Counted from the first letter of the stretch, positions 23,826 to 40,786 are shown. The stretch is DNA of 45,513 bases from Leptolyngbyaceae cyanobacterium (GCA_050331235.1 JBHJHA010000002.1:1-45513); one strand, 5' to 3'. Notes: generated by a model from the sequence alone, not told the origin. Numbers and translations are program-made.

Positions 23826-24148
23826 AAAAGTTGACCTTGCTAGCGCTCAAGATGACTGGTGTAACAACAACTTTACTTGGAACTTAGATTAGGCCGTTTA
23901 GCTGAGGAGAAAATGAGATTTGTCAGAGGATTACACCATCGTTTTCCCATCAAATATTCATCAGATTGAACGGAATCGGTCTGCCTGAATTCATCTGGAA
24001 TTCAGAAACTTTTAGTTGAATAATCTCAACTTCGGAATTTCATCAAGTCAGAAAAAATCATACTGACGCGAGAATGCCGTGAATGTTCTTCACCTTGGAG
24101 CCTTGGTGCCGGTTGCCTGTGCGATTCACCAGCGACTCACCTCAAATT

Positions 24149-25489
24149 ATGGAAGTTGATGAAGCTCTAGCTCTATTGGACGATCTCCTACCGGAATACA
24201 CCTTGAGCAATTTGCAGGAAACGGTGTTTTCTCAAGTTTGGCAGGGAAAAACCTATGCTGAAATTGCCGAAGCCTGTAACTATGAGCACAACTATATTCG
24301 CGATGTCGGATTTCGACTGTGGCAACTGCTATCTGGTGCCCTAGGCCAGAAAATCTCAAAAAGTAATATCAAGGGAGTGCTGGGACGCTACGCTCGCAGT
24401 CGCTCTGAAGATCCGGTAGTGATGCCCAATCAGCTGAGGGAGGTACAACTTGAGTTTCCGAGTGGGCCGGTGCCGCTCAACTCGCCGCTCTATATCGAGC
24501 GTCCCCCGGTGGAATCTCTGGCCTTTGCTGACGTGCTCAAACCTGGCAGCTTGATTCGGATTAAAGCGCCTAAGCAAATGGGTAAAACTTCGCTAGTGCG
24601 CCGGATTGTGGCCCATGCTCAAACCCACGGCCTACATACGGTGACATTGCGCCTCAATCGGGCCGATCGCACAATTTTTCAAGACATTGACCGCTTTTTG
24701 CGCTGGCTCTGTGCCAATATCAGTCATCAGTTAGGGCTGGAGCCGGCCCTTGATGCTCACTGGCAACCTGCCATTGGCAGTAAGGTGAGTTGTACCGCCT
24801 ATATCGAAGACTATATTTTGACCCAGGTGCAAGGCGATATTGCGATCGCGCTGGATGAGATGAATGAGGTGTTTCAATACCCAGAGATAGCCGCAGAATT
24901 TTTGCCCCTGCTGCGTACCTGGTACGAAGATGCCCAGGAGTATCCCACCTGGCAGCGGTTACGCTGGGTGCTGGCCCACGCTACAGATGTATATGTGCCT
25001 TTGCAGCTTAGTCAATCTCCCTTTAACGTCGGGCGATCGATCAAACTGCCCAGCTTTTCGCTAGCGCAGGTGCAAGATTTAGCCCAGCGCCACGGCTTAG
25101 ATTGGGCCGACGCCGAAGCTGGGACGGAAAAGCTGCTGTCGCTTTTGCAGGTGGTTAGCTGTCGCCCGGGATTGGTGCGGCTAGCCCTGTATGCTTTGGC
25201 CCGTTACCAAGTGCCCTTAGCGCGGCTCATTGACGAGGCTCCTACCCAGTCGGGAATTTATAGCGATCACCTGCGTGAACTGCTGGCCGCCGTATATCCT
25301 TACCCACGTTTACAAGCGGCCCTGGGACAGGTGATTGAGGCTGATCGGCCGGTTACCCTCGAGCCGATCACTGCCTATCGCCTAGAGAGCTTGGGACTCA
25401 TTAGCGTCGATAAAAACCAGGCTTCTCCGAGCTGTGAGCTCTATCGTCAGTATTTTCTCAAGTTTCTACCGCGAGCCGCCGATGATTGA
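24149..25489 (+). CDS. AAA_35-type NTPase with N-terminal HTH-like domain
   Basis: LQETVF..WQGKTYAEIA..LWQLLS.ALGQKISKSN; YIERPPVE; Walker A APKQMGKTS; Walker B IALDE; SPFNVG; start at ATG 24149. Confidence 0.88.
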   Translation: MEVDEALALLDDLLPEYTLSNLQETVFSQVWQGKTYAEIAEACNYEHNYIRDVGFRLWQLLSGALGQKISKSNIKGVLGRYARSRSEDPVVMPNQLREVQLEFPSGPVPLNSPLYIERPPVESLAFADVLKPGSLIRIKAPKQMGKTSLVRRIVAHAQTHGLHTVTLRLNRADRTIFQDIDRFLRWLCANISHQLGLEPALDAHWQPAIGSKVSCTAYIEDYILTQVQGDIAIALDEMNEVFQYPEIAAEFLPLLRTWYEDAQEYPTWQRLRWVLAHATDVYVPLQLSQSPFNVGRSIKLPSFSLAQVQDLAQRHGLDWADAEAGTEKLLSLLQVVSCRPGLVRLALYALARYQVPLARLIDEAPTQSGIYSDHLRELLAAVYPYPRLQAALGQVIEADRPVTLEPITAYRLESLGLISVDKNQASPSCELYRQYFLKFLPRAADD

Positions 25490-26912
25490 CTACCAAGTCG
25501 GGGGCAGTTTGCCGGTGGATGCGCCGAGCTATATTGAGCGCAGTGCCGATCACCAGCTCTATACCGCGCTGAGCGATCGCCAGTTTTGCTACGTGCTGAC
25601 TTCGCGACAGATGGGCAAATCGAGCTTGCGTCTGCGGATGCGCCACCGGCTCGAAGCTGCCGGTCAAGGACGCTGCGTGGCGATTGATCTAACCCGCATT
25701 GGCAGTTATCAACTCACCCAAGGGGAATGGTATCAGGGCTTAGCCTTTGATCTAGTGCGTAAGTTGGGCCTACAGCGACAGCTTGCCATCCCTGCTTGGT
25801 GGCAACGGCTGGGTAATTTGTCGGCAGTCCAAAAATTTGGCCAACTGCTCGAATCAGTGCTGGACATGGACGACACCTGCGCTCCCCTTTACATCTTTCT
25901 CGACGAGATTGATAGCGTGCGGGGGCTCAGCTTTTCAGTGGACGATTTCTTTGGTCTGGTACGGTTTTGCTATAACGAACGGGCCGAAAATCCCCGCTTT
26001 CGCCGTCTGACTTGGGGCCTGTTTGGGGTCGCCACTCCCCGTGATCTGGTACAAAATCCCCAGCAAACCCCCTTCAATATTGGTCGAGCAGTGTCGCTGA
26101 CTGGATTTTCTGAAACGGAGGCAGCGCCGCTCACCGCCGGCCTCGTGGCGATCGCCCAGCGGCCTGAGGCTCTTCTCCGCGAAGTGTTGTACTGGACCGG
26201 CGGGCAACCGTTCTTAACCCAAAAAGTGTGTGCTCTGCTGCGTGAAGGGTATGACCTACCGTTGATTGCGGCGGGTCGTGAAGCTGCCTGGGTGGCCGCG
26301 GTGGTGCGATCGCGCCTAATTCATAACTGGGAGGTTCAGGATGATCCGGAGCATTTGCGTACCATTCGCGATCGGCTGACCCAAGACAACCGCCGCGCTG
26401 GTCGTTTGCTGAGCCTGTATCAGCGGGTGCTGGCCCAAAGGCAACTGCAAGCCGATGGTAGTCAGGATCAAGCGGAGCTGAAACTATCGGGCATTGTGGT
26501 TGAGCAAGCGGGACAACTCCAGGTGACTAATCCCGTGTATGCTGCTGTGTTTAATCCTGAGTGGATTGACGATCACCTCTCACAACAGCGCCCCTATGCT
26601 GCAGCGTTAAACGCATGGATTGCCTCTAGCTACCAAGACGAATCGCGTTTGCTCATGGGGCAAGCCCTCGCCGAAGCAGTGCACTGGTCCACCGATAAAA
26701 GCCTGAGTGATTTGGATTATCGCTTTCTCTCCGCGAGCCAAGAGTGGGACGCCAAAATGATCCGTCTGGAACTAGAGGCCCAAGCCAAGGCCAATCAAAT
26801 GCTCGCTGAGGCGCAACAAAAGGCTGCACGGGTAATTGGGCTCGGCTATGCCAGCCTAGGGGCCTGTCTGGTGATTTCAGCGATCGCCCTTATCACCAGT
26901 TTGCTACGCTGA
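25482..26912 (+). CDS. AAA_35-type NTPase with C-terminal coiled coil and TM helix
   Basis: YQVGGSL..DAPSYIERSAD, SRQMGKSSL, IFLDEID, TPFNIG, WTGGQPFLTQK, DESRLL; start at ATG 25482 overlaps the upstream stop. Confidence 0.9.
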   Translation: MIDYQVGGSLPVDAPSYIERSADHQLYTALSDRQFCYVLTSRQMGKSSLRLRMRHRLEAAGQGRCVAIDLTRIGSYQLTQGEWYQGLAFDLVRKLGLQRQLAIPAWWQRLGNLSAVQKFGQLLESVLDMDDTCAPLYIFLDEIDSVRGLSFSVDDFFGLVRFCYNERAENPRFRRLTWGLFGVATPRDLVQNPQQTPFNIGRAVSLTGFSETEAAPLTAGLVAIAQRPEALLREVLYWTGGQPFLTQKVCALLREGYDLPLIAAGREAAWVAAVVRSRLIHNWEVQDDPEHLRTIRDRLTQDNRRAGRLLSLYQRVLAQRQLQADGSQDQAELKLSGIVVEQAGQLQVTNPVYAAVFNPEWIDDHLSQQRPYAAALNAWIASSYQDESRLLMGQALAEAVHWSTDKSLSDLDYRFLSASQEWDAKMIRLELEAQAKANQMLAEAQQKAARVIGLGYASLGACLVISAIALITSLLR

Positions 26913-27252: not shown

Positions 27253-29496
27253 ATGACTTCTGCACGTCTCTTCCCCAAGCTATTGCGGCCCCGGTTAGCC
27301 ACGCTGTTGATGGTCGGCACGCTGATGGCCGCGGCGGCGATCGCGATCGCCTGGTTTGCCGGTAACGGGCTGATTACCACCATCTTTCGCCAGTTGGATC
27401 AGCTCCAGCAGCATCCCCCTGGCTGGGCCATGACGCCCATGATGATTGGCCATTACTTTTGGTTTTGGGCGACGGCGCTGATCTTGGTTGTTTGGCTAAT
27501 TATGCGGGTGTCGCCTACGCCGCAGACTTGGTCTCGTACCGTAGTGGTCGGCATCTTGGGCCTTCTGACGCTGCGGTATCTGAGCTGGCGGCTCACCTCC
27601 ACGCTCAATCTCAGCACACCACTGGATGGGGTCTTTAGCCTGGGCTTATTGGCCCTGGAACTGCTAATTGTGTTGAATGGTTTGGTGCAGCTCTTTTTGC
27701 TGCTGCGCGTGCGCGATCGGCGGCAGGCTGCGGACCAACTGGCCCAAACCGTTACAGCGGGGGCATATCGCCCAACGGTGGACGTCTTGATTCCCACCTA
27801 TGACGAGCCTGCGTTTATCCTGCGGCGCACGGTGATGGGCTGCCAGGCCATGGACTATGACCCCAAAACCGTTTATTTGCTTGATGATACCCGGCGATCG
27901 GAGATTCAAGCCTTGGCGGCTGAGTTGGGGTGTGAATACATCACCCGTCCCGACAATCGCCATGCCAAAGCGGGCAATCTCAACCACGCCATTCCCTTGA
28001 CCCAAGGGGAACTGCTGGTGCTGTTTGATGCCGACTTCGTGCCCACAAAGAATTTCTTGACCCGCACGGTGGGCTTCTTTCAAGATCACCAAGTTGCCCT
28101 CGTTCAAACGCCCCAGAGCTTTTACAATCCTGATCCCATTGCCCGTAACCTGGGCCTCGAAGATGTTCTCACGCCAGAAGAGGAGGTGTTTTATCGACAG
28201 ATCCAGCGGGTGCGCGACGGTGCTGGGGCAGTGGTATGTGCGGGAACCTCTTTTGTCGTGCGTCGCTCGGCGCTGGAGTCAGTGGGCGGGTTTGTGACAG
28301 AGGCGGTGAGCGAAGACTTTTTCACTGGCATTCAGCTCGCGGCGAAAGGGTATCGGCTGATTTACCTCAATGAAAAACTCAGCGCCGGCTTAGCCGCAGA
28401 AAACATTGCGGCCCATGCGCTACAGCGAGTGCGCTGGGAACAGGGCACCCTGCAAGCGTTTTTTATCCAGTCCAATCCGGTGACCATCCCAGGTCTGAAA
28501 CCGCTTCAGCGGTTGGCTTATTTTGAAGGATTGATTCACTGGTTTAGCAGCGTGGCGCGGGTAGGCTTTTTGCTAATGCCCTTGGCCTATGCTTTTCTTG
28601 GCGTCATTCCGCTGCGGGCGACCGAGGCGGAACTGCTGTACTTTTTTCTTCCCTTTTACGTAGTGCAGTTGAGCGTGTTCTCCTGGCTGAATTATCGATC
28701 GCGCTCTGCGCTGCTATCAGATGTTTATTCCTTGGTGTTAGCCTTTCCCCTCGCTCTAACGGTCTTTCAGGTGATGGTGCGCCCCTTTAGCAAAGGCTTT
28801 AAGGTCACGCCCAAAGGAACGGCCAACGATCGCTACCATTTCAACTGGTCCTTGGCCTGGCCCTTGGTCTTGGTCTTTGGACTCACGGCCCTGAGCCTGT
28901 GGATCAATTTGGGCCAGTGTTTGGTGACTATGGCGAACCCAGTCGAGCACCTGCGCGGTATCGGCATTGGCTGGCTGTGGAGCGCCTACAACCTGCTGAT
29001 GTTGGGGTTGGCCCTACTTATCCTGCTAGATGCGCCCCGCCCCAGTCCCTATGAATGGTTCAACGTGCAGCGCATCGCGCGGGTGCAGCGGGCAGGCGAT
29101 CGCGCGGCCCCGCCGGTCTGGGGCACAACGACGATGATCTCGGAAGTCGCGATCGAACTAGAACTCACTAAGGTCGATGCCCTGGCAGGCCAAGACTGGC
29201 ACGGACAGACCGTCGAGATTGCCCTGATGGACGAGTCCTTAACCCTCTCGGCGCGGATTATACAACAGCAGCGGCCAAACGGCTTGCCGAGAATTACCGC
29301 CGAGTTTGAGCCGCTGAGCCAAACCCAACAGCGTCAGTTAGTGGCGCTGCTGTTTTGTCGACCGGGGCAGTGGCAGAGTCGCTGCTCGCCCAATGAGTTG
29401 CAGTCGCTATGGCTCATTCTCAAGTCAGTATTGCGACCCCGATTTTTAACTGATCGCCGACGGCATCCTAAACCTGTTTTGCTTAACCGGGGTTAG
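27253..29496 (+). CDS. Cellulose-synthase-like (BcsA-type) processive GT2 glycosyltransferase with C-terminal PilZ-like region
   Basis: IPTYDE, LLDD, HAKAGNLN, FDADF, QTPQ, SED, QRVRW, FKVTPKG; multiple TM helices. Confidence 0.9.
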   Translation: MTSARLFPKLLRPRLATLLMVGTLMAAAAIAIAWFAGNGLITTIFRQLDQLQQHPPGWAMTPMMIGHYFWFWATALILVVWLIMRVSPTPQTWSRTVVVGILGLLTLRYLSWRLTSTLNLSTPLDGVFSLGLLALELLIVLNGLVQLFLLLRVRDRRQAADQLAQTVTAGAYRPTVDVLIPTYDEPAFILRRTVMGCQAMDYDPKTVYLLDDTRRSEIQALAAELGCEYITRPDNRHAKAGNLNHAIPLTQGELLVLFDADFVPTKNFLTRTVGFFQDHQVALVQTPQSFYNPDPIARNLGLEDVLTPEEEVFYRQIQRVRDGAGAVVCAGTSFVVRRSALESVGGFVTEAVSEDFFTGIQLAAKGYRLIYLNEKLSAGLAAENIAAHALQRVRWEQGTLQAFFIQSNPVTIPGLKPLQRLAYFEGLIHWFSSVARVGFLLMPLAYAFLGVIPLRATEAELLYFFLPFYVVQLSVFSWLNYRSRSALLSDVYSLVLAFPLALTVFQVMVRPFSKGFKVTPKGTANDRYHFNWSLAWPLVLVFGLTALSLWINLGQCLVTMANPVEHLRGIGIGWLWSAYNLLMLGLALLILLDAPRPSPYEWFNVQRIARVQRAGDRAAPPVWGTTTMISEVAIELELTKVDALAGQDWHGQTVEIALMDESLTLSARIIQQQRPNGLPRITAEFEPLSQTQQRQLVALLFCRPGQWQSRCSPNELQSLWLILKSVLRPRFLTDRRRHPKPVLLNRG

Positions 29497-30292: not shown

Positions 30293-30796
30293 ATGATGAA
30301 ACTAATGTGGATCAAGCACAGTTTGCTGGCCGCTGCGGCTCCGGCGATGGTGTTGGTCAATGCCTTGCTCCCGTTGACGGCTGGGCCCCCCCCCGTCCAG
30401 CTGCAACCGCACTCATAGGCAGAGACCTTGGTCGACTCCGAGCCCAAGACCCTCAACCAGGCCCTAAAGCAGATGCCAATGGTGCTGCCAACGGCTGCCC
30501 AGGCCAGTATCACCTGGCAAGACGGACGCTATGTTTTGGAGTTTTTTCACGCCCTCAATGCGGCGGCGCAGACCCCAGACTTGATGCTGATGTTAGATAT
30601 GGACGCGCAGCCCCAGGGCACCTACGGGCCCAGGCGCGATCGCGCAGTGATGCTGGGACCACTTCACCCCGTGGCTGGTCAGCAAAGGTACCCCATTCCG
30701 GCTGCGGTTGATGTCAATCAGTACCGCTCGGTGGCGATTTGGTGTCCTGAGCTGAATGCGGTGCTGGGATACTTGCCCGTTAGCGTGGATGGATAG
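30293..30796 (+). pseudogene. DM13 domain protein interrupted by an in-frame TAG
   Basis: GGAG RBS, ATG 30293, signal-like MMKLMWIKHSLLAAAAPAMVLV; TAG at 30416-30418; the same frame continues into PDL..LGPL..GQQRYPIP..VDVNQYRSVAIWC (DM13). Confidence 0.7.
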
Positions 30797-31016
30797 CCGG
30801 TGTATCCCGTTTCTGACTTTGCTGCGGCCCGGTTGCGGCCCAATGTGGCTATTCTCCGGCGGGAGAGCTCCCAACCGCTTTCCCCAGGGGCTGATAGCCG
30901 CTTACCAACAGTAGGAGCCAGAGCGCAAATTACCCAGGGCTTACCTGTGGGGAGCGCTGCTCTACCAATGATATCGCTCCGTTGCTTGGGTTGCCGCATT
31001 GAAAGGGACATGGGTA

Positions 31017-32909
31017 ATGTCGATTAAGCGAGTGGGCCGATGGTTAGGGGCGATCGCCCTCGGTTGGTTCCTCATCACTACCGCTGCCAGTGCTCAAGAG
31101 GCCCCCCACCGCCTGCCGGTAGTGCTCGACGGGCGATCGCTGTTTGCTGTGGGCGATTTGGATGACTTCTCCGCGAGCGAACGCGCCGACTTTGTCAATC
31201 ATGTGCTCCAGGCTCAGCTTCGCCAATTGCCGCCAGAAACGCCCATTCAAGTGACCCAACTGAAGCGGGGTGAGCTAATTACCCTGCGGGTGTCGGGGCG
31301 GCACGTATTGACAATTACTGACCAAGATTTAATGGGCAACATTCCCGCTGAGGAGCAGGCGGATCGATGGGCCGATAAGCTCCAGCAAGCTTTGCAACAA
31401 GGGAGAGCGCAGCGGACGCCAGCCTATCGTCGTCGCATCTTAATAGTGGCAGTGGGACTCGCCGTCTTAGGCTTGGGGCTCTACTTTGGCTTGCGTGGGT
31501 TGCGGCGGTGGCTGCGTCGCCATCGGCGTCGACTCTCGCCGGGGGCGCGATTTTGGACGGAAATGGGGATCTATCTGGCCCAGTGGAGCCTGCTGATTGG
31601 CTTTTTGGGATGGGTGTCCCAGGCCTTGCCAGAGCTCAGACATTGGCGCTATCGCGGACTAAACTTTCTCGGCACGACTCTGACCGCTGATGTCGTCACC
31701 CTGAGCGATCACGGCTATTCCATTCTGGAAGTCAGCAAAATTCTGCTCTTGGTGGTGCTGCTGTGGTTGGCCGTTCGGGCCATTACCGGACTCGTGCGCG
31801 CCCGTGTCCTGCAAACCGTGGGGGCAGATCCTACTGCTCAGGATGCGATCGCCCTATTCATCCAGGTTGCGCTGACTGGATTTGGCCTGTTGGTGCTCCT
31901 TCAGGCGTTTGGGGTCGACGTCAGTTCCCTGGCGATTTTGGCCAGTGTCATCGGCGTCGGTATCGGCTTTGGCCTGCAAAACATCGCCAACAATTTCATC
32001 AGCGGCTTGATCATCATGCTAGAGCGTCCTGTGCAGGTGGGAGACTTTGTTAAGCTGGGCGACCTCACGGGGACAGTCGAACGCATCGGCATTCGCAGCA
32101 CTGAAATCAGCACCCTTGATCGCATTACAATTATTGTCCCCAATTCAGAATTTATCGACAGTAAAGTCATCAACTGGAGTCACGGTTTCCCCGTTTCCCG
32201 GCTGCACATTCCCCTAGGGGTGGCCTACAGCTCGCCCATCAAACAGGTGCGCCAAGCGGTGTTCGAAGCGGCCCGGCGACATCCCAAAGTGCTGCGCTAT
32301 CCTAAGCCCCAACTCTGGTTTGAGGGGTTTGGCGACAGTTCGTTAGATTTCAACCTGCTGGTGTGGATTCGAGAACCGCGCCAGCAGTTTCGCATCCGCA
32401 GTGACCTCTACTATTTACTCGAAGCGAATCTGCGGCGTTTTCACATCGAGATTCCCTTTCCCCAGCGCGATCTCCATCTCCGCAGCGATGCTCTCGGTCT
32501 TCGCGACCCGGCATCGGCGCGACCCGCCGACCGCATCACCAGCAGTCCCGCTGTAACAGTTGATGAGGTCCAAACTTTAGAGGAGGCGATCGCCGACTGT
32601 GACATTTTGGATCACCGTGATGAGCCCGCAGAGCTTGAAATTCAAGAACTGGTAGCCCAGATGCGCGGGCCCAATGGCCTCGAAATTCGCGATCGCCGAT
32701 TTGGGCTACAGGTTTATACGCGATGTTTTGTTGGCAGCGATGCCGTGCGCTGGTTTATGCAGCGGCAGCTCGCATCCCGTGAAGAAGCCATCCGGCTGGG
32801 CCAAATTTTGGTCGAGCGAGGGATCATTCATCACGTTATCGATGAACACACCTTCAAAGATGATCATCTGTTTTATCGATTCTTTATCGACGAAGCGATC
32901 GAGCTATAA
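31017..32909 (+). CDS. MscS-family mechanosensitive channel with C-terminal DEP domain
   Basis: GVGIGFGLQNIANNFISG, ERPVQVGD, IGIRST, IIVPNS, IEIPFPQRDLH; DEP region CFVGSDAVRW..REEAIRLGQILVERGIIHHV..FKDDHLFYRF. Confidence 0.93.
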   Translation: MSIKRVGRWLGAIALGWFLITTAASAQEAPHRLPVVLDGRSLFAVGDLDDFSASERADFVNHVLQAQLRQLPPETPIQVTQLKRGELITLRVSGRHVLTITDQDLMGNIPAEEQADRWADKLQQALQQGRAQRTPAYRRRILIVAVGLAVLGLGLYFGLRGLRRWLRRHRRRLSPGARFWTEMGIYLAQWSLLIGFLGWVSQALPELRHWRYRGLNFLGTTLTADVVTLSDHGYSILEVSKILLLVVLLWLAVRAITGLVRARVLQTVGADPTAQDAIALFIQVALTGFGLLVLLQAFGVDVSSLAILASVIGVGIGFGLQNIANNFISGLIIMLERPVQVGDFVKLGDLTGTVERIGIRSTEISTLDRITIIVPNSEFIDSKVINWSHGFPVSRLHIPLGVAYSSPIKQVRQAVFEAARRHPKVLRYPKPQLWFEGFGDSSLDFNLLVWIREPRQQFRIRSDLYYLLEANLRRFHIEIPFPQRDLHLRSDALGLRDPASARPADRITSSPAVTVDEVQTLEEAIADCDILDHRDEPAELEIQELVAQMRGPNGLEIRDRRFGLQVYTRCFVGSDAVRWFMQRQLASREEAIRLGQILVERGIIHHVIDEHTFKDDHLFYRFFIDEAIEL

Positions 32910-33168: not shown

Positions 33169-33199
33169 AAAAAGCAGGCTCTCTAACGAATAGAGAGCC
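33169..33199 (-). terminator. Intrinsic terminator of the precursor peptide gene
   Basis: GGCTCTCTA-acgaa-TAGAGAGCC stem at 33177-33199, followed on the minus strand by TGCTTTTT. Confidence 0.75.
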
Positions 33200-33240
33200 C
33201 GTAGCTTTCGGTGTGACTATTGAGACAAAGCTATATCAGT

Positions 33241-33519
33241 CTAGTCTTTGTCGAGGTTTTCACGACGTAGCTCGTCTAGGCTAGATGCATCCTTATCGAG
33301 GTTCTCACGGCGTAACTGGTCAAAATTGACGCCACCGCTGACGCCCTCGAGCTGATCATCAGAAATTGCATCTTTGTCGAGATTTTCACGACGTAGCTGA
33401 TCGAAATTAACAGCATCTTTGTCGAGATTTTCGCGGCGTAGCTGATCGAAATCAACACCACCACTAACATTCTCTAGCTGCTCATCAGAGACGGATTCCT
33501 TATTAGTGTTCTCAGCCAT
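33241..33519 (-). CDS. Multi-core double-glycine leader precursor peptide (2 leaders, 4 core repeats)
   Basis: SDEQLENVSGG and SDDQLEGVSGG; four LRRENLDKD; AAGGAG RBS 8 nt upstream (33528-33533); own terminator; divergent from a C39 peptidase transporter operon. Confidence 0.9.
   Translation of the reverse strand: MAENTNKESVSDEQLENVSGGVDFDQLRRENLDKDAVNFDQLRRENLDKDAISDDQLEGVSGGVNFDQLRRENLDKDASSLDELRRENLDKD
33244..33456 (-). repeat. Four ~42-45-bp coding repeats in a 2x2 arrangement
   Basis: Units recur 45 bp apart within a cassette and 126 bp apart between cassettes; differences within LRRENLDKD are synonymous. Confidence 0.9.
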
Positions 33520-33784
33520 GTGAATAGCTCCTTAACAATTACACATTCATCCTAGTAATCAGAATTGAAATTGTATGCCTGATAAAGTCGCAATCTAAAA
33601 GAGTTGAAATGTTAAATTCGAACATTTTGGGGGCTGGTTTCAGAAGGTTTTAAGCGGAATTTAATCTGCTTACCAAGTGTTAAGTTTGTTGTCGCTATTT
33701 GCTGGATAATGTTGGGTGTTTTCTTCGGCCATCGGTGTCAATGAAGAAACCCTTTAATATCGGGACGTCGCACCACAATTTCCT

Positions 33785-34831
33785 ATGACAGATACTTTAT
33801 TGCGAGAGTTGAGTAACACCGACCTGGACTGGATGATTACCAGTGGTGAGCGATCGCGGCTGTCGAGTGGAGAGCAGTTGTTAGGTGCGAGCCGCAGTTC
33901 TGACCTTCTATACGTCCTGATTGAAGGGAAGCTGGGCCTCACCGTAATGCCCGAGGGGGCTTCTGCTCAGGCAGATGAACTGCAGGATGAGCTGACTCAG
34001 GGAGAAATTGTCGGCATCGGGGCGCTCTTTGATATGCCAGAAATGAGCAACGTCAATACCCTGGAGCCTTCCATGGTGATGTCGCTCCCTATCGCTAAAA
34101 TTCGCGCCAAGTTGGCCGAAGATGTGGCCTTCGCGGCTCATTTTTACCGCGCGATCGCCATTATGCTGTCGAGTCGACTCCGGCGCATTTTTGAGCAACC
34201 AGGCCGTATTCAGCGTTGGGGTGAGCGCTCCGCTAAAGAAGTCCTGTCTGTGTTTGGAGAGTTGCGTGACAGTGATGTCGACTGGCTGGTGTCCTTTGGC
34301 GAAACGCGGGCGATCGCGGCGGATAAAGTTCTACTGCAGGCCGCTCGGCCGGTGGATGCCCTCTATATCTTGCTGGATGGTCAAATGTCCATCTCTGCTC
34401 CCCAGCAGGGTGAGTTTAACCCCCTTTATCTATGCTTTTCTGGGTTAGAGAGCAGTACCCGCGAGCAAAAGGCTTTTGCCACCATTGCCAAAGGAGGCAT
34501 GCCCGGCATCATCTCATTTCTCGATTTTCGCCCCCTCCCAGTCACCATTCGAGCCACTCGGGAGTCCCTGGTGTTTGCGGTGCCTCGACAAACCCTCGTG
34601 ACTAAGTTGCAGGTCGATGACAGCTTTGCTTCCCGGTTTTATCGCGTGATTACGATTGAAATCCTAGAACTGCTGCAAACGGTCAGCTCGCGATTGGTAC
34701 AGCCCGATCATGCCGCACCGACTCAGGACAACGATCTGCTGGACGAAGAGTTAGACATGGCAGATTTGCGCCAAATGTCAGAAGGAGCCAAGAAATTTAA
34801 CTGGATGTTATCTCAGCTGGGGGTCGCATAA
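33785..34831 (+). CDS. Tandem cNMP-binding domain protein of the type associated with cyanobacterial bacteriocin transport operons (TIGR03896-like)
   Basis: Two homologous halves (ELSNTDLDWM..LYVLIEG..FAAHFYRAI and ELRDSDVDWL..LYILLDG..FASRFYRVI); C-terminal DEELD. Confidence 0.85.
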   Translation: MTDTLLRELSNTDLDWMITSGERSRLSSGEQLLGASRSSDLLYVLIEGKLGLTVMPEGASAQADELQDELTQGEIVGIGALFDMPEMSNVNTLEPSMVMSLPIAKIRAKLAEDVAFAAHFYRAIAIMLSSRLRRIFEQPGRIQRWGERSAKEVLSVFGELRDSDVDWLVSFGETRAIAADKVLLQAARPVDALYILLDGQMSISAPQQGEFNPLYLCFSGLESSTREQKAFATIAKGGMPGIISFLDFRPLPVTIRATRESLVFAVPRQTLVTKLQVDDSFASRFYRVITIEILELLQTVSSRLVQPDHAAPTQDNDLLDEELDMADLRQMSEGAKKFNWMLSQLGVA

Positions 34832-35409
34832 TGGCTGAAAAGACGACTAAAGAACTCTTTCGCAAAGAGTCGCTAGAGCGCCTCTCCTCACCAGAACGGC
34901 TAGATGAGCTGATGACCATTGTCAATTTCAAGACCTGGTTGCCCCTCGGGACCATTAGCATTTTGCTAGGGCTAGGGCTGATTTGGAGCTTGGTCGGTCG
35001 CATTCCGGTGACGACGAGCGGCCGGGGATTGCTGGTGCAGGATGAGCAGTCCGCTGGCCAACTCGCCGCTTTGCTGCATTTTGACAATCGGTATCGAGGG
35101 CAGTTTCAGCCTGGTATGCCGGTGGTGATCACCCCCGATACGCTGTTGATTTACAACGAGCCTGGACTCCAGGCAGAAATCGTAGAGGTGCTGGAGCCCC
35201 CGGCCGTCACCCTTGACCAGGCTCGCCAAGTCGACATGGCTGCGATGGCAGAACCTCAGGATGGTCGGCTAGAGATCTTAGCCCAGTTGTCGCCGATGGA
35301 TGCTGCCATGCCGCCTAATACAGTCGTGGCTGGGGTGGAAATTCAGGGGCGCATCACGCTAGAAGAACGGGCCCCAATCAGGTTTGTGTTTCCCTTTTTA
35401 GCGCGTTAG
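34831..35409 (+). CDS. Shortened NHLP-type secretion / membrane-fusion protein (TIGR03794-like N-terminus)
   Basis: LFRKESLERLSSPERLDELM, TM, GRIPVTTSGRGLL, C-terminal RAPIRFVFP; only 192 aa; TAATG overlap with the upstream gene. Confidence 0.82.
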   Translation: MAEKTTKELFRKESLERLSSPERLDELMTIVNFKTWLPLGTISILLGLGLIWSLVGRIPVTTSGRGLLVQDEQSAGQLAALLHFDNRYRGQFQPGMPVVITPDTLLIYNEPGLQAEIVEVLEPPAVTLDQARQVDMAAMAEPQDGRLEILAQLSPMDAAMPPNTVVAGVEIQGRITLEERAPIRFVFPFLAR

Positions 35410-35525: not shown

Positions 35526-37745
35526 ATGCTGATTTTTCCTAAGCCGCTGGCAAAATCTTCTTCTAGCAAACGGGTCAAGACGCCCACCGTGCTGCAAATG
35601 GAGGCAGTGGAGTGTGGCGCTGCCGCGCTGGGTAAAATCCTTGGTTACTATGGCAAAACGGTTCCTTTGGCCGAGCTGCGCCAGACCTGTGGGGTCTCCC
35701 GTGACGGGGTGACGGCGGCCAGCGTACTCAAAGCGGCACGCAAGTACGGCTTAGAGGCATCAGGCTACAAAAAGAGTCTGGAGCGAGTCATGCAGCTCTC
35801 GCCGCCATTTATTGTGTTTTGGCATTTCAACCACTTTTTAGTGGTCGATGGCTTTACTGACAAATGGGTGTACTTAAACGATCCCGCAACGGGGCCCCGC
35901 CGTGTTACCCAGGCGGAGTTTGATGAAGGCTATACGGGCATCGTGCTGGGTTTTCAACCAGGTGAAACCTTTGCACCAGGCGGCAAGCAAGACAAGCTGA
36001 TCGGTACCCTATGGCAACGTCTCAAGCCATCAACCGGAGCGTTGCTGTTAGCTATTATTGCCGGATTCTTCTTAGTGCTACCGGCGCTGACGCTGCCTGC
36101 CCTCAGCCGGATTTTTGTGGATTCTGTCCTGGTGGGGGGGCGTCTGGAGTGGGTGCCCTACCTGCTAGTGGGACTGCTCATCGTGGCGATTGTGCAGGGT
36201 TGGTTAACGGCACTCCAGCGGCGCTATTTGCGATCGCTACGCATCAAGTTGGCTGTAGGCATGACCAGTCGCTTTGTGTGGCACGTGCTGCGGTTGCCTG
36301 TGGGCTTTTACGCCCAGCGCTTTGCTGGAGAAATTGCCAGCCGCATTCGCCTCAATGATGAGGTGGCAGCGGTGCTCTCGGGCCGCCTAACGACAACAGT
36401 GATCAGCTTTGTCCTGGTGATTTTTTACGCCTTGGCAATGGCCCAATATGATCTACTTATGACGGCGATTGTGGTAGGGTTCGCCATTGTCAATGTGGTG
36501 GTCTTGCAGTGGATTGGGCGACAGCGTACCGACGCCAACCTGCGTCTCTCCCAGGAATATGGCAAAGCCGCTGGGGTCGCGATCGCCGGCCTGCAAAACA
36601 TGGAGACCATCAAAGCCTCCGGTTTGGAATCGGACTTCTTCGCTCGCTGGGCGGGATACTACACCAAGTCCATCAATGCCCAGCAGGACCTCGGCCTCAC
36701 GAACCAGCTTTTGGGAATCTTGCCTTCTTTGCTGTCGGCGCTGACCAATCTCGCACTGCTCGTAGTTGGCGGCTGGCGGGTGATTAATGGTGAGCTCAGC
36801 ATCGGCATGCTCGTCGCCTTTCAACTGCTGATGGTGAGCTTCCAGCGTCCAGTCAACCGGCTGGTCAGCTTTGCTAGCATTTTGCAAACCCTACAGGGCA
36901 ACTTGACCCGCCTTGATGATGTTTTGGCCAATGAGGTCGATGGTCAGCTCATCGGTGCTGGTATGGAATCCGAGTCTTCGCCAACCGCCGAGCACTCTCT
37001 ACCAGCGGCAACTCATCGGTTGACGGGAGCCATTACGTTGCGCAATCTGGCCTTTGGCTACCATCCCCTTGAAGCACCGCTCATCGACAACCTGAATCTC
37101 GAGATTCAACCCGGACAGCGGGTTGCGTTTGTCGGCGGCAGCGGTTCCGGTAAGTCGACCCTGGCCAAGCTAATCGCCGGACTTTATCAGCCCCGCTCCG
37201 GTGAAATTTGTTTTGATGGCTGTCCCCGGGAGCGGGTGCCGCGGGCAGTGCTGACTAACTCCATCGCCGTGGTGGAGCAAGACATTCTGATTTTTGAGGG
37301 AACCATTCGCGACAATCTCACCCTGTGGGACACCACGATTCCAGAGGTAGACTTGCGCCGGGCCGCCCAAGACGCGGCGATCGAAGATGTGATCTTGGCT
37401 CAGCCCTATGGCTTCGATGCGCAACTGTTAGAAGGGGCATCCAACCTCAGCGGGGGCCAGCGTCAGCGGCTAGAAATGGCCCGCGCCTTGGTGGGCAATC
37501 CGTCGATTCTCATTCTGGATGAGGCCACCAGCGCCCTCGATACCGAAACGGAGAAAATCATTGACCAAAACTTGCGTCGTCGGGGCTGCACCTGCATCAT
37601 CGTGGCGCACCGCCTGAGCACCATTCGTGACTGCGATGAAATTCTTGTGATGGATCACGGCAAAGTTGTGCAGCGCGGCACCCATGAACAACTCTGGGAG
37701 GCTGGAGGCCACTATGCGCGACTGATCAAAAGTGAATCTGGTTGA
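35526..37745 (+). CDS. NHLP/NHLM bacteriocin ABC transporter, C39 peptidase/permease/ATPase (TIGR03796-like)
   Basis: TPTVLQMEAVECGAAAL (catalytic Cys), CGVSRDG, FNHFLV, NDPA; GGSGSGKST; LSGGQRQR; LDEATSALD. Confidence 0.95.
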   Translation: MLIFPKPLAKSSSSKRVKTPTVLQMEAVECGAAALGKILGYYGKTVPLAELRQTCGVSRDGVTAASVLKAARKYGLEASGYKKSLERVMQLSPPFIVFWHFNHFLVVDGFTDKWVYLNDPATGPRRVTQAEFDEGYTGIVLGFQPGETFAPGGKQDKLIGTLWQRLKPSTGALLLAIIAGFFLVLPALTLPALSRIFVDSVLVGGRLEWVPYLLVGLLIVAIVQGWLTALQRRYLRSLRIKLAVGMTSRFVWHVLRLPVGFYAQRFAGEIASRIRLNDEVAAVLSGRLTTTVISFVLVIFYALAMAQYDLLMTAIVVGFAIVNVVVLQWIGRQRTDANLRLSQEYGKAAGVAIAGLQNMETIKASGLESDFFARWAGYYTKSINAQQDLGLTNQLLGILPSLLSALTNLALLVVGGWRVINGELSIGMLVAFQLLMVSFQRPVNRLVSFASILQTLQGNLTRLDDVLANEVDGQLIGAGMESESSPTAEHSLPAATHRLTGAITLRNLAFGYHPLEAPLIDNLNLEIQPGQRVAFVGGSGSGKSTLAKLIAGLYQPRSGEICFDGCPRERVPRAVLTNSIAVVEQDILIFEGTIRDNLTLWDTTIPEVDLRRAAQDAAIEDVILAQPYGFDAQLLEGASNLSGGQRQRLEMARALVGNPSILILDEATSALDTETEKIIDQNLRRRGCTCIIVAHRLSTIRDCDEILVMDHGKVVQRGTHEQLWEAGGHYARLIKSESG

Positions 37746-37894: not shown

Positions 37895-40786
37895 ATGATT
37901 GCTACGCTTTCTCAACCTCGGACGATTACAGCTAATGAGCCGCTGCTGCTGACCGATCCGTCTAAGCTCTGGCACGTCAAATCGGGCCAGCTGGCGGTGT
38001 TTGTCACTGCTTTTGTCGATGAACAACCGGTCGGCGAGCGGTGGTATCTCTTCACGGTAGAGGCGGGAGAAGCGTTGTTCAGCGCCACTATCTGTCCGGT
38101 GACACACCTTGGGTTGCTAGCGATCGCGATCGAACCGGCCGAAATCCTAGATGTGCCTTTGAGCGAAACCGATGAATCGGCCCTGCCGAGCAATCGCCTC
38201 AAGCAGTTAGCCGATCCATGGATCCATCACCTCAGCCAAATCGACGGCTTTCCGAGAACGGCACAGACGGGAGTCGTGCCGGATATTCACTACATCTCGC
38301 TGCTACCGGGGCAAGTTTGCCGCGCCCCAGCAGGCACTGTTGCTTGGGTGCGGATGCAACAGGGCAAGGCCTCTTGGATGGGGAATCCCTCCTTTCCCCT
38401 CGCCTCTGAATTGGGCTGTTTTCCGTTAGGAGACGGCATGTTTATGCAGGCACAAGACCATATTGAGTTTTTCATTCGACCGACTCAAGAGGTCAAAAAC
38501 CGCAAAATTATCATTCGCGGGATTAAACAACTCCACAATTACTTTTTCAGTACCGTTGAGCAGATCCAATCGCGGCAGCAGCGGCTAAGGCTACGCCGGT
38601 TTCAACAGCGGCAGCAGCTCAATCAGGAGGTCACCCAAAAAGTCGTTCGCACTTTATCTGGTGTTTTAGAGCAAGATGAGCGCTTTCAGGAAATTGATTC
38701 TCCCCTATTGGCCGCTGCCGGGGCCGTGGGTAAATCCCTCGGCGTGAGGATCGAACCGCCCGCCACATCAGAAAACACGACCCGAAATAAGGAGCCATTA
38801 GAGGCGATCGCCCGCGCCTCTCAACTGCGGCTGCGGCGGGTACTCTTGCGTGGCCAGTGGTGGCAAAAAGACAGTGGTCCGATTGTGGCCTATACCCGTG
38901 AAGGTCACCATCCAGTGGCGCTGTTACCCACGCGCGGCAGCCAGTATGAGCTATTTGATCCCGTTGCGGCCCAGGCTGATCCGACTGCGGTCAGAGTGCC
39001 CATTACGGCTGCTATTGCCAATTCCCTAGAGCCCGTCGCCTTTGTCTTTTATCGACCATTGCCGACCACTGAGCTCAATGCCCTTTCCCTGCTCAAGTTT
39101 GCCTTTCGCGGTCAGGGACGAGATTGGCTGATGATTTTGCTCACAGGCGTCGCGGCTACGCTCATTGGCATGCTGGTGCCCCAGGCCGCGGCTGCGCTGG
39201 TGGATACGGTGGTGCCGTATGGCGATCGCCCACTGCTCGTTCAGATCGGGCTGGGACTGCTGGCGGCGGCGCTTGGAGCCTCCAGTTTTCGCTTGGCCCA
39301 GGCGATCGCCACCATGCGGGTCGAAACCGCCTCGGATGCTCACTTACAGGCTGCAGTTTGGGATCGGTTACTAAAGCTCCGCACCTCGTTTTACCGCGAC
39401 TACGCCACGGGGGACCTCAACTCCCGGGTCTCCAGCATCACCGCCATTCGCCGCAAGCTGAGCGGGTCCGCTCTTCAAGGCTTGTTTGCCGGTGCCTTCT
39501 CACTGTTAAACCTCGGACTGTTGTTTTACTACAGTCCGCCTCTGGCCCTAATTGCGCTACTGGTTGCCCTCGTTATTCTGGTGGTGACAGTGGCCTCCGG
39601 TTTAGTGCTTGTACGCAAATATCGCCCCTTGTTAGAAATCCAGGGCAAGCTCTACGGCCTTGTGGTGCAGCTTATCAACGGGGTCTCAAAACTCCGCATT
39701 GCCGGTGCCGAGGAACGGGCCTTTGCCGCTTGGGGCCAGCGCTATGGTCAGCAGCTGCGGCTCACCCTCAGCACCCAACAGCTCGAAGACGCTGTCGATG
39801 TGTTTAACACCGTGCTCCCCATTTTTACGACGCTGATTTTGTTTTGGTTGGCCAGTCAGTTTGTTGATAACACCTCTGGCGATGGCCTCTCAACAGGGAC
39901 CTTTCTCGCTTTTTCCGTCGCCTTCGGCACGTTTATCTCAGGGGCCACTAGTCTCAGTAATACGTTGGTAGAACTGCTCGATGTTGTGCCTCTCTGGCAG
40001 CGGGCCCAGCCAATTCTCCGAGCTGAGCCTGAGGTTAACCTCACCAAATCGGACCCTGGTCAGCTTTCCGGAGCGCTTAAAGCTGAGCGGGTGAGTTTTC
40101 GTTACAAGCCGAACGGTCCCCTCATCCTCGACGATGTCAGTTTTGAAGCTAAGCCCGGCGAGTTTATTGCACTGGTTGGTCCCTCGGGGTCAGGTAAATC
40201 TACCGCAATGCGCCTATTGCTAGGATTTGATAGCCCCGAGTCCGGCACCATTTACTTCGATGGTCAAGATCTTTCGGGCTTGGATGTCGTTGCTGTACGC
40301 CGACAGTTTGGGGTAGTTCTGCAAACGAGTCGCCTCAGCGCCGGCTCTATTTTTGAAAACTTGGCCGGTGGTGCCCTCATTTCCTTAGACGATGCCTGGG
40401 ATGCGGCTGAAAAAGCGGGACTTGCGGATGACCTGCGAGCTATGCCGATGCAGATGCATACCGTTGTCAGTGAAGGGGGGACTAACCTCTCCGGCGGCCA
40501 GCGCCAGCGGCTGCTCATTGCTCGGGCGCTAGCGGTGCATCCGAAAATCATGCTCATGGATGAAGCCACCAGTGCCCTGGATAATCGCACTCAAGCGATC
40601 GTGACGGAAAGCTTGGATCGACTCAATGTGACCCGTGTGGTGATTGCCCATCGCCTAAGTACCATTCGTAATGCTGATCGCATATATGTTGTGGAAGCTG
40701 GGCGAGTCGTACAGCAGGGCAACTTTGATGAGCTGGCGGCTCAGGGTGGCTTATTTGGTCAGCTCATCAAGCGACAAATGGCTTGA
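37895..40786 (+). CDS. NHLP/NHLM bacteriocin ABC transporter partner, permease/ATPase (TIGR03797-like)
   Basis: N-terminal cNMP-like region; AIARASQLRLRRVLLRGQWWQKDSGP; GPSGSGKST; LSGGQRQR; MDEATSALDNRTQ. Confidence 0.93.
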   Translation: MIATLSQPRTITANEPLLLTDPSKLWHVKSGQLAVFVTAFVDEQPVGERWYLFTVEAGEALFSATICPVTHLGLLAIAIEPAEILDVPLSETDESALPSNRLKQLADPWIHHLSQIDGFPRTAQTGVVPDIHYISLLPGQVCRAPAGTVAWVRMQQGKASWMGNPSFPLASELGCFPLGDGMFMQAQDHIEFFIRPTQEVKNRKIIIRGIKQLHNYFFSTVEQIQSRQQRLRLRRFQQRQQLNQEVTQKVVRTLSGVLEQDERFQEIDSPLLAAAGAVGKSLGVRIEPPATSENTTRNKEPLEAIARASQLRLRRVLLRGQWWQKDSGPIVAYTREGHHPVALLPTRGSQYELFDPVAAQADPTAVRVPITAAIANSLEPVAFVFYRPLPTTELNALSLLKFAFRGQGRDWLMILLTGVAATLIGMLVPQAAAALVDTVVPYGDRPLLVQIGLGLLAAALGASSFRLAQAIATMRVETASDAHLQAAVWDRLLKLRTSFYRDYATGDLNSRVSSITAIRRKLSGSALQGLFAGAFSLLNLGLLFYYSPPLALIALLVALVILVVTVASGLVLVRKYRPLLEIQGKLYGLVVQLINGVSKLRIAGAEERAFAAWGQRYGQQLRLTLSTQQLEDAVDVFNTVLPIFTTLILFWLASQFVDNTSGDGLSTGTFLAFSVAFGTFISGATSLSNTLVELLDVVPLWQRAQPILRAEPEVNLTKSDPGQLSGALKAERVSFRYKPNGPLILDDVSFEAKPGEFIALVGPSGSGKSTAMRLLLGFDSPESGTIYFDGQDLSGLDVVAVRRQFGVVLQTSRLSAGSIFENLAGGALISLDDAWDAAEKAGLADDLRAMPMQMHTVVSEGGTNLSGGQRQRLLIARALAVHPKIMLMDEATSALDNRTQAIVTESLDRLNVTRVVIAHRLSTIRNADRIYVVEAGRVVQQGNFDELAAQGGLFGQLIKRQMA

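Follow-up and report, generated by a model that had tools for sequence, protein, structure and literature searches.

A short cyanobacterial precursor that carries its double-glycine (GG) motif twice, each time ahead of a pair of repeats, raises the question of whether it is cut once or repeatedly by its exporter, and of what its products might do. The precursor, a 92-residue protein designated P0001, is encoded in a stretch of 45,513 nucleotides from a Leptolyngbyaceae cyanobacterium (GCA_050331235.1 JBHJHA010000002.1:1-45513), referred to here in its full length as the window, and its gene is divergent from a complete NHLM-type export operon (Table 1). The reading favoured, with a probability of about 0.6 on sequence evidence, is that the precursor is an unmodified, polyprotein-like cargo of a PCAT, cut after G21 and G63, from which two acidic peptides are exported.

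In the mechanism proposed, ABC1 and ABC2 would act as the exporter together with the short HlyD-like and cNMP-binding proteins. ABC1, through its C39 domain, would cut the precursor after G21 and after G63, and we infer both cleavages, together with export, from the features described below. Two hydrophilic peptides would be released, comprising residues 22-63 (4807 Da, charge about -6) and residues 64-92 (3505 Da, charge about -3), and duplication of the cassette would double the yield per transcript. Across the wider family, the repeat pair would reach the outside by two routes, either behind a GG leader and through a PCAT or behind a Sec signal peptide.

Table 1. Window coordinates of the precursor gene, its parts, its expression signals and the neighbouring genes discussed in the text.
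Feature	Coordinates	Strand	Evidence and details
Precursor gene, 92 aa (P0001)	33241..33519	-	translation, conserved orthologs, purifying selection; stop codon included
N-terminal double-glycine leader, residues 1-21	33457..33519	-	V-12, L-7, V-4, GG
Cassette 1 repeat pair, residues 22-50	33370..33456	-	translation, Tandem Repeats Finder
Internal 13-residue double-glycine motif AISDDQLEGVSGG, residues 51-63	33331..33369	-	I-12, L-7, V-4, GG
Cassette 2 repeat pair, residues 64-92	33244..33330	-	translation, orthologs
Shine-Dalgarno AAGGAG, 8 nt before ATG	33528..33533	-	read from sequence
Promoter-like site TTTAGA-18-TACAAT	33570..33599	-	adjoins conserved upstream block
Terminator-like hairpin, 11 pairs, then T-run	33175..33201	-	40 nt past stop
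Secreted DM13-domain gene	30293..30796	+	PF10517 49.9 bits; in-frame TAG 30416-30418
cNMP-binding 'bacteriocin-type transport-associated protein'	33785..34831	+	TIGR03896 256.8 bits (cut-off 161); PF00027
Short HlyD-like protein, 192 aa (P0122)	34831..35409	+	TIGR03794 66.5 bits (cut-off 156), N-terminus only
NHLM ABC1: C39 peptidase/permease/ATPase	35526..37745	+	TIGR03796 1105 bits (cut-off 853); PF03412
NHLM ABC2: permease/ATPase	37895..40786	+	TIGR03797 999 bits (cut-off 709)

The precursor gene and its internal motif

P0001 consists of MAENTNKESVSDEQLENVSGG (leader), VDFDQLRRENLDKD AVNFDQLRRENLDKD, AISDDQLEGVSGG and VNFDQLRRENLDKD ASSLDELRRENLDKD, which form two 42-residue cassettes, each with a recognition segment ending in [VIL]SDxxLxxVxGG and then a 29-residue repeat pair. 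Residues 21 and 63 close the two GG pairs, and each of the four repeats ends in LRRENLDKD. The translation agrees letter for letter with the 92 residues proposed in the first-pass annotation and shows the four repeats and two GG sites that it described. Tandem Repeats Finder detects the repetition in the DNA (126-bp period, 1.9 copies, 76% matches, score 294; 45-bp period, 2 copies, 93%). The repeat pair is made of two 15-mer repeats (xDFDQLRRENLDKD), and a profile of the pair scores 74.4 bits on residues 22-51. The earlier statement that the core lacks Cys, Ser and Thr holds for three repeats and for the conserved core, FDxLRRENLDKD, but not for the fourth repeat, ASSLDELRRENLDKD, which has two Ser and matches the one that closes single-cassette orthologs.

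The open reading frame is a real, conserved gene, far beyond a chance ORF, since orthologs of the same layout occur in other species, with pS at 0.68-0.81 but pN at 0.05-0.10 in the repeats. These values, of which pS is saturated, were pooled from 18 double-cassette genes, one of the 19 having been left out for a third GG-like match, and pooled pairwise pN/pS ignore shared ancestry and are descriptive only. Expression signals surround the gene as well. The strong ribosome-binding site described earlier is borne out by the spacing of AAGGAG from the start codon and by its exact presence in six of seven aligned upstream regions. A conserved upstream block, GAYTTTTTCAGGCA (window 33535-33620 (-) and the corresponding regions of L021, L024, L025, L026, L028 and L051), is present in all seven regions, with TACAAT after it in three of them; a promoter or operator function for the peptide gene is possible. 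Promoter-like and terminator-like sites are weak evidence alone, since a scan found about as many in shuffles; the gene's own terminator, as proposed earlier, would be the hairpin and T-run after the stop codon, a kind of site about as frequent in shuffled sequence.

The internal segment is exactly 13 residues long and makes up a complete minimal double-glycine recognition element. The leader motif in residues 10-21 is VSDEQLENVSGG, and its internal counterpart in residues 52-63 is ISDDQLEGVSGG. In the LahT150 study, the last 13 leader residues suffice for the protease, and the leader pocket positions -4, -7 and -12 used here are taken from it (PMC6363468). The leader of P0001 has the hydrophobic residues at -4, -7 and -12 and the GG that are required of a C39 cargo, and it is also matched by the TIGR01847 bacteriocin_sig model (20.5 bits, cut-off 15.7).

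Selection on the internal motif was compared with that on the leader in the pooled double-cassette genes. The internal 13 residues have a pN of 0.25 and the last 12 residues of the true leader a pN of 0.26, while the values are 0.046 for repeat pair 1 and 0.097 for repeat pair 2. By this measure, the internal motif is as constrained as the true leader and under selection. The motif stands at every cassette junction in 20 of 20 multi-cassette GG-type genes, which come from other species and hold two or three cassettes each, and at none in 33 Sec-type ORFs; part of this perfect correlation between the types of leader and spacer may stem from the history of duplication and not from function. The leader-core-core-leader-core-core layout put forward in the first-pass annotation is thus conserved and under selection in the 20 multi-cassette genes, and a second C39 cleavage site is predicted after G63.

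Comparison between cassettes within genes gave pS of 0.34-1.03 and pN of 0.02-0.22 (0.80 and 0.10 in the window gene). On these figures, most of the cassette duplications are old, they arose repeatedly, and all copies have been retained. Three cassettes, with three GG motifs and six repeats, are found in L012 (1563-1967) and L014 (10001-10408), neither of which is linked to a transporter; in L014 the first two cassettes share 91% DNA identity, a sign that their duplication is more recent.

The export operon, its likely cargo and the neighbouring genes

Among solved structures, the closest relative of the ABC1 C39 domain is the double-glycine protease LahT150 (6mpz), to which it aligns with an E-value of 5.5e-43. 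Cys30, His103 and Asp119 of ABC1 align with Cys27, His101 and Asp117, the catalytic triad of LahT150 (PMC6363468), and the triad is intact. The HlyD-like protein has 192 residues against the 421 positions of the TIGR03794 model. Short homologs of it occur in 19 of 20 linked loci, with match lengths about equal where the contig is uncut. It has the look of a short adaptor in its own right and not of a gene that has been truncated. ABC2 has an N-terminal extension of 267 residues (37895-38698 (+)), which matched no recognised Pfam domain and showed no resemblance to the nearby cNMP protein.

A check for linkage to TIGR03796 and TIGR03797 genes, suggested in the first-pass annotation, found both above their cut-offs beside the precursor gene, and the linkage recurs in relatives. 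Of the 31 assessable GG-type ORFs, 19 have a cNMP-gene homolog at a distance of 1.5 kb or less, against none of the 27 assessable Sec-type ORFs. The genes that the 20 linked loci share with the window are those for the cNMP protein (20), the short HlyD-like protein (19), ABC1 (16) and ABC2 (16), and contig ends account for most of the shortfall. The same syntenic slot is occupied by 12 single-cassette and eight double-cassette genes, and both kinds end in AS[SRN]LDE[LI]RRENL[DE]KD; given the same slot and the same terminal variant repeat, the window gene is read as the transporter-linked ortholog with an extra cassette.

The search of the host genome yielded a single peptidase-exporter of the NHLM type (TIGR03796) and one further C39-like gene, for a HlyB-type type I secretion ATPase. 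Convincing GG-leader ORFs in this genome are limited to two members of the repeat family. No Nif11 leaders (TIGR03798) were found in the genome; NHLP leaders (TIGR03793) were also not found, an absence that is weak since control genomes gave none either, and P0001 itself has no TIGR03793 or TIGR03798 match at E <= 0.01. With a single exporter of this type, no Nif11 or NHLP leaders and no other convincing GG-leader ORFs, the GG peptides of the repeat family are the likely main cargo of the adjacent exporter. No modifying enzyme, such as one defining the lanthipeptide, azol(in)e or graspetide class, was found in the window neighbourhood or near the three genomic paralogs, and nothing beyond the four transporter genes is conserved in the 20 linked loci, so that no syntenic modifying enzyme emerges there. 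These results agree with the earlier argument from core composition against lanthipeptide, azole and classic graspetide ester chemistry; at a genome completeness of 95.5%, a modifying enzyme encoded elsewhere or a further cargo may have escaped notice.

A secreted DM13-domain protein is a recurring companion of the peptides. In the window, the in-frame TAG of its gene falls between the signal peptide and the domain. Of the 78 loci, 10 have an intact DM13 homolog, in each case together with GG-type peptides; it lies between ABC1 and ABC2 in four of them (L039, L048, L060, L066) and 0.3-2.6 kb downstream of the peptide gene in the other six; two more DM13 paralogs are found in the host genome, on contigs 81 and 19. 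A complex prediction for the intact DM13 protein of L025 with residues 22-92 of the L025 peptide gave a score of 0.00, which counts neither for nor against an association. Other genes in the vicinity include an MscS-type mechanosensitive channel with a C-terminal DEP domain (PF00610, 78 bits; 30999-32909 (+)), which is convergent with the peptide gene and common to just two of the 20 linked loci. Farther away are two adjacent AAA_35 (PF14516) genes (24083-25489 and 25434-26912 (+)) and, after them, a cellulose-synthase-like GT2 gene (27253-29496; TIGR03030 480 bits, below the cut-off of 699).

The repeat family and its relation to known systems

The proposal of a 'candidate new peptide class' stands in that the core family is undescribed, but the gene turns out to be one member of a sizeable, clade-specific family. 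A protein search (E <= 0.01) returned at least 212 related proteins, which are present in databases as hypothetical proteins. Genomic scanning confirmed 190 stretches, and 78 loci were kept at one genome per species; these hold 82 repeat ORFs, of which 43 are GG-type, 33 Sec-type and six unclassified, most of the last being cut by contig ends. Among the GG-type ORFs, 21 have one GG motif with two repeats, 15 have two with four repeats, three have two with three repeats, two have three with six repeats, and two have one GG motif with one or three repeats. Single- and multi-cassette forms are roughly equal in number, and the most frequent architecture, one GG leader with two repeats, accounts for 62 of 121 classified proteins, the query included.

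Sec-type relatives among the 121 classified proteins have a signal peptide, MKRIALALTAL...AYA, and then 2-5 repeats. More generally, Sec-type proteins consist of a repeat pair and a spacer of 8-9 residues (e.g. AVVEIQVKG), up to five times, with up to 10 repeats, and the spacer is conserved as AV[VY]E[IV]x[VA]K[GA] in L010, L029, L047, L079 and other Sec-type loci. Since the same pair occurs with different spacers in GG-type and Sec-type proteins (33 of 82 ORFs), the repeat pair of 29-30 residues is taken as the functional unit. Compared in this way, the repeat family is a conserved module of 29-30 residues delivered by two routes, and not a peptide class of this cluster alone. Among the neighbours of Sec-type genes, the best recurs in six of 32 loci, and no conserved receptor or partner gene was found.

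All carriers are thin filamentous cyanobacteria, namely Leptolyngbyaceae, Nodosilinea, Halomicronema, Phormidesmidales, Oscillatoria sp. CS-180, Tildeniella and Almyronema. The pair profile matched in 63 of 173 genomes of the host order, in 11 of 19 genera and in 13 of 13 genomes of the host genus, with up to 45 matches in a single genome. Family distribution tracks taxonomy rather than one habitat. Three DNA runs from one stromatolite metagenome study contain this stretch, and no RNA run was found among the sequencing runs listed as containing it. An exhaustive HMM search of 1.84 billion representatives gave 91 clusters at E <= 0.001; three long matches in it were rejected as Ig-repeat, YadA-stalk or otherwise unrelated proteins by their Pfam matches. 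A search for longer or fused forms returned three proteins, all of them multi-repeat and secreted, and none with a precomputed Pfam domain. The host genome contains four members: besides the window gene, contig 34 carries a GG gene with a single cassette, and contigs 28 and 37 carry one Sec-type gene each. The contig-28 gene (L008 8062-8268 (-)) immediately follows a dCache-HAMP sensor gene of the same strand, and the contig-34 gene lies downstream of a response regulator; chance could account for either arrangement.

By its sequence matches, the system does not form a new class; it falls among the double-glycine/PCAT systems and within the NHLM transporter family. With the double-glycine systems (AMS; LahT, ComA, PCAT1), the locus shares a leader that fits [LVI]S..EL..[VI].GG and an adjacent C39-ABC transporter with an intact triad, whereas here the recognition motif is repeated inside the precursor, with one to three cassettes per gene, and the cargo consists of acidic, hydrophilic repeats. 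ABC1, ABC2 and the cNMP protein exceed their cut-offs in the usual operon of NHLM/NHLP/Nif11 systems; unlike those systems, the locus has a leader of only 21 residues, a 192-residue HlyD-like protein below its cut-off and no maturation enzymes. Multi-core precursors such as cyanobactin PatE and yeast alpha-factor likewise deliver several copies of a mature peptide from one translation product, whereas each copy here apparently has its own double-glycine motif and no modifying enzyme is linked.

Sec-type relatives resemble the 'pentapeptide MXKDX repeat protein' model TIGR02953, which matches 18 of 18 at E <= 0.01; in L047 it scores 44.4 bits (cut-off 41) over the signal peptide and first repeats. 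P0001, however, scores 18.5 bits, below that cut-off, and its repeat is a 15-mer rather than a pentapeptide; to our knowledge, no function has been characterised for the TIGR02953 family. The precomputed Pfam label PF28158 was seen in GG-type relatives only, among the relatives listed, so a curated model touching the repeat family may already exist. The claim that the core belongs to no described family is supported by the literature searched, in which the core motif was not found, and the motif is also absent from the supplements of a 2011 survey of cyanobacterial bacteriocins. Under the phrases searched, no description of internal, second or multiple double-glycine motifs in precursors was found. 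By these comparisons, what is new is a multi-cassette PCAT cargo, an uncharacterised core family and the use of two export routes.

It is mostly assumed that the double-glycine exporters of cyanobacteria carry bacteriocins or RiPPs. The nearest functional analogy, compared by description only, is found in the small GG-motif proteins EbfG1-4 of Synechococcus elongatus PCC 7942, which are secreted in dependence on the C39 peptidase-transporter PteB and have an extracellular role in biofilm formation rather than as antibiotics (PMC4997328, PMC9981879). The abstracts of these two reports present EbfG proteins neither as tandem-repeat nor as multi-cassette precursors. EbfG proteins are the only functionally studied, unmodified cyanobacterial double-glycine cargo found in the literature searched, and by analogy a biofilm or matrix role for the repeat family may be guessed. 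The present locus suggests that an NHLM-type exporter can serve a short-leader, apparently unmodified, acidic repeat peptide.

Processing, rival readings and possible roles

The reading closest to the favoured one treats the internal GG as a mere spacer, the exporter removing the 21-residue leader and secreting one four-repeat protein of 71 residues. In PCATs, as established for PCAT1, removal of the N-terminal leader goes hand in hand with transport of all that follows it, and if the N-terminal site is cut first and transport is prompt, a 71-residue cargo could leave with its internal site intact. The internal motif could also have been inherited through duplication, and the multi-pair Sec-type relatives show spacers of 8-9 residues that carry no known cleavage signal. 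These same relatives indicate, however, that a shorter and different linker is enough for spacing alone, whereas the internal motif of the GG-type genes has all the positions needed by LahT150, the closest solved protease, is constrained like a true leader despite saturated synonymous sites, and is kept in every multi-cassette gene, including both internal sites of the three-cassette genes. Secretion as a single protein is thus considered unlikely. Through cassette amplification the internal cleavage motif appears to have been retained by selection, and the same module is also sent through Sec. The internal site offers a simple test of polyprotein processing by a PCAT peptidase.

Modification of the core before export, by an enzyme encoded elsewhere such as an ATP-grasp ligase forming Lys-Asp/Glu lactams or an Asp/Asn hydroxylase, would make the precursor a RiPP. 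Near-total conservation is typical of cores recognised by enzymes, the Lys, Asp and Glu residues of this core can form lactams, and NHLM transporters are classically tied to modified peptides. Known graspetide precursors also include some that combine GG motifs with several core repeats, and graspetide cluster 13 has several core repeats (PMC8939145). The genomic surveys nevertheless yielded no such enzyme in the neighbourhood, near the three paralogs or conserved across the 20 linked loci, the conserved core has no Cys, Ser or Thr, and in 33 of the 82 repeat ORFs an identical core follows a Sec signal peptide, with no leader for a cytoplasmic enzyme, all of which makes modification distinctly improbable. 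A class II-type antimicrobial bacteriocin directed against competitors would account for the double-glycine leader and the PCAT exporter, and P0001 comes close to the NF038167 'CTB family bacteriocin' model (31.8 bits against a cut-off of 32), which also matches 20 of 26 GG-type relatives at E <= 0.01. This match, however, covers residues 9-36 only, mostly leader, and in the literature searched the name is printed merely as an annotation label. Membrane-active bacteriocins differ from the predicted products, whose charge is -3 to -6 and whose GRAVY is -1.1 to -1.6 (about -1.5 for the predicted peptides, with a weakly amphipathic muH of 0.09); no immunity-like gene is consistently linked in the 20 loci, and Sec-exported paralogs with 8-10 repeats are ill-suited to a toxin. 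The bacteriocin reading therefore has very little probability.

With twofold cutting and export of an unmodified precursor as the preferred reading, the role of the peptides is a matter of guesswork. The best guess, somewhat short of an even chance, is that they are abundant, sequence-specific binding modules outside the cytoplasm, in the envelope, sheath or matrix, or binders of cations. A diffusible signal is a doubtful guess, and an antibiotic is hardly to be expected. Copy number, the long Sec arrays and the lack of a conserved receptor gene favour abundant extracellular or periplasmic binding or assembly over a signal, and the near-invariance of almost every residue implies specific recognition. 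A more far-reaching joint reading, tentative and with the odds clearly against it as a whole, is that this clade mass-produces a near-invariant two-helix peptide of 29 residues, from polyproteins exported along two routes, as a new extracellular effector, the precursor on the PCAT route being cut repeatedly by the C39 protease of the transporter at the double-glycine site of each cassette. The effector would be a matrix or sheath component that assembles with itself or in dependence on cations, or else a signal, possibly acting with the secreted DM13 protein. If this holds, it would be the first bacterial polyprotein of the multi-GG-site PCAT kind, as far as the literature was searched. Near-invariance, together with saturated synonymous divergence and dozens of cassettes per genome, suggests an important extracellular role in mat- and stromatolite-forming cyanobacteria.

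Structural comparison yielded several candidates that were set aside. A search of solved structures with the family profile gave leader-like or leucine-rich-repeat chance matches only (E >= 0.016), the best score in an ESM Atlas search was 0.83, below the useful range, and a weak YadA_stalk Pfam match (19.4 bits, cut-off 28.4) is attributed to composition or periodicity. A canonical EF-hand, defined by a 12-residue loop with ligands at 1, 3, 5, 7, 9 and 12, Gly at 6 and Glu at 12, was rejected for DKDAVDFDQLRRE by inspection, which has no Gly at 6 and has its Glu at 13 rather than 12, and no EF-hand Pfam match to P0001 was found at E <= 0.01; the segment may bind cations in other modes. AlphaFold2 models are of low confidence, with a mean pLDDT of 53.9 for the window protein and 41.9 for a Sec-type relative of eight repeats, and contain one short low-confidence helix per repeat; they gave no structural hint of function. 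Each predicted helix carries opposite-charge pairs at i/i+3 and i/i+4, and the segment between helices, DKDAVDFD, is rich in Asp.
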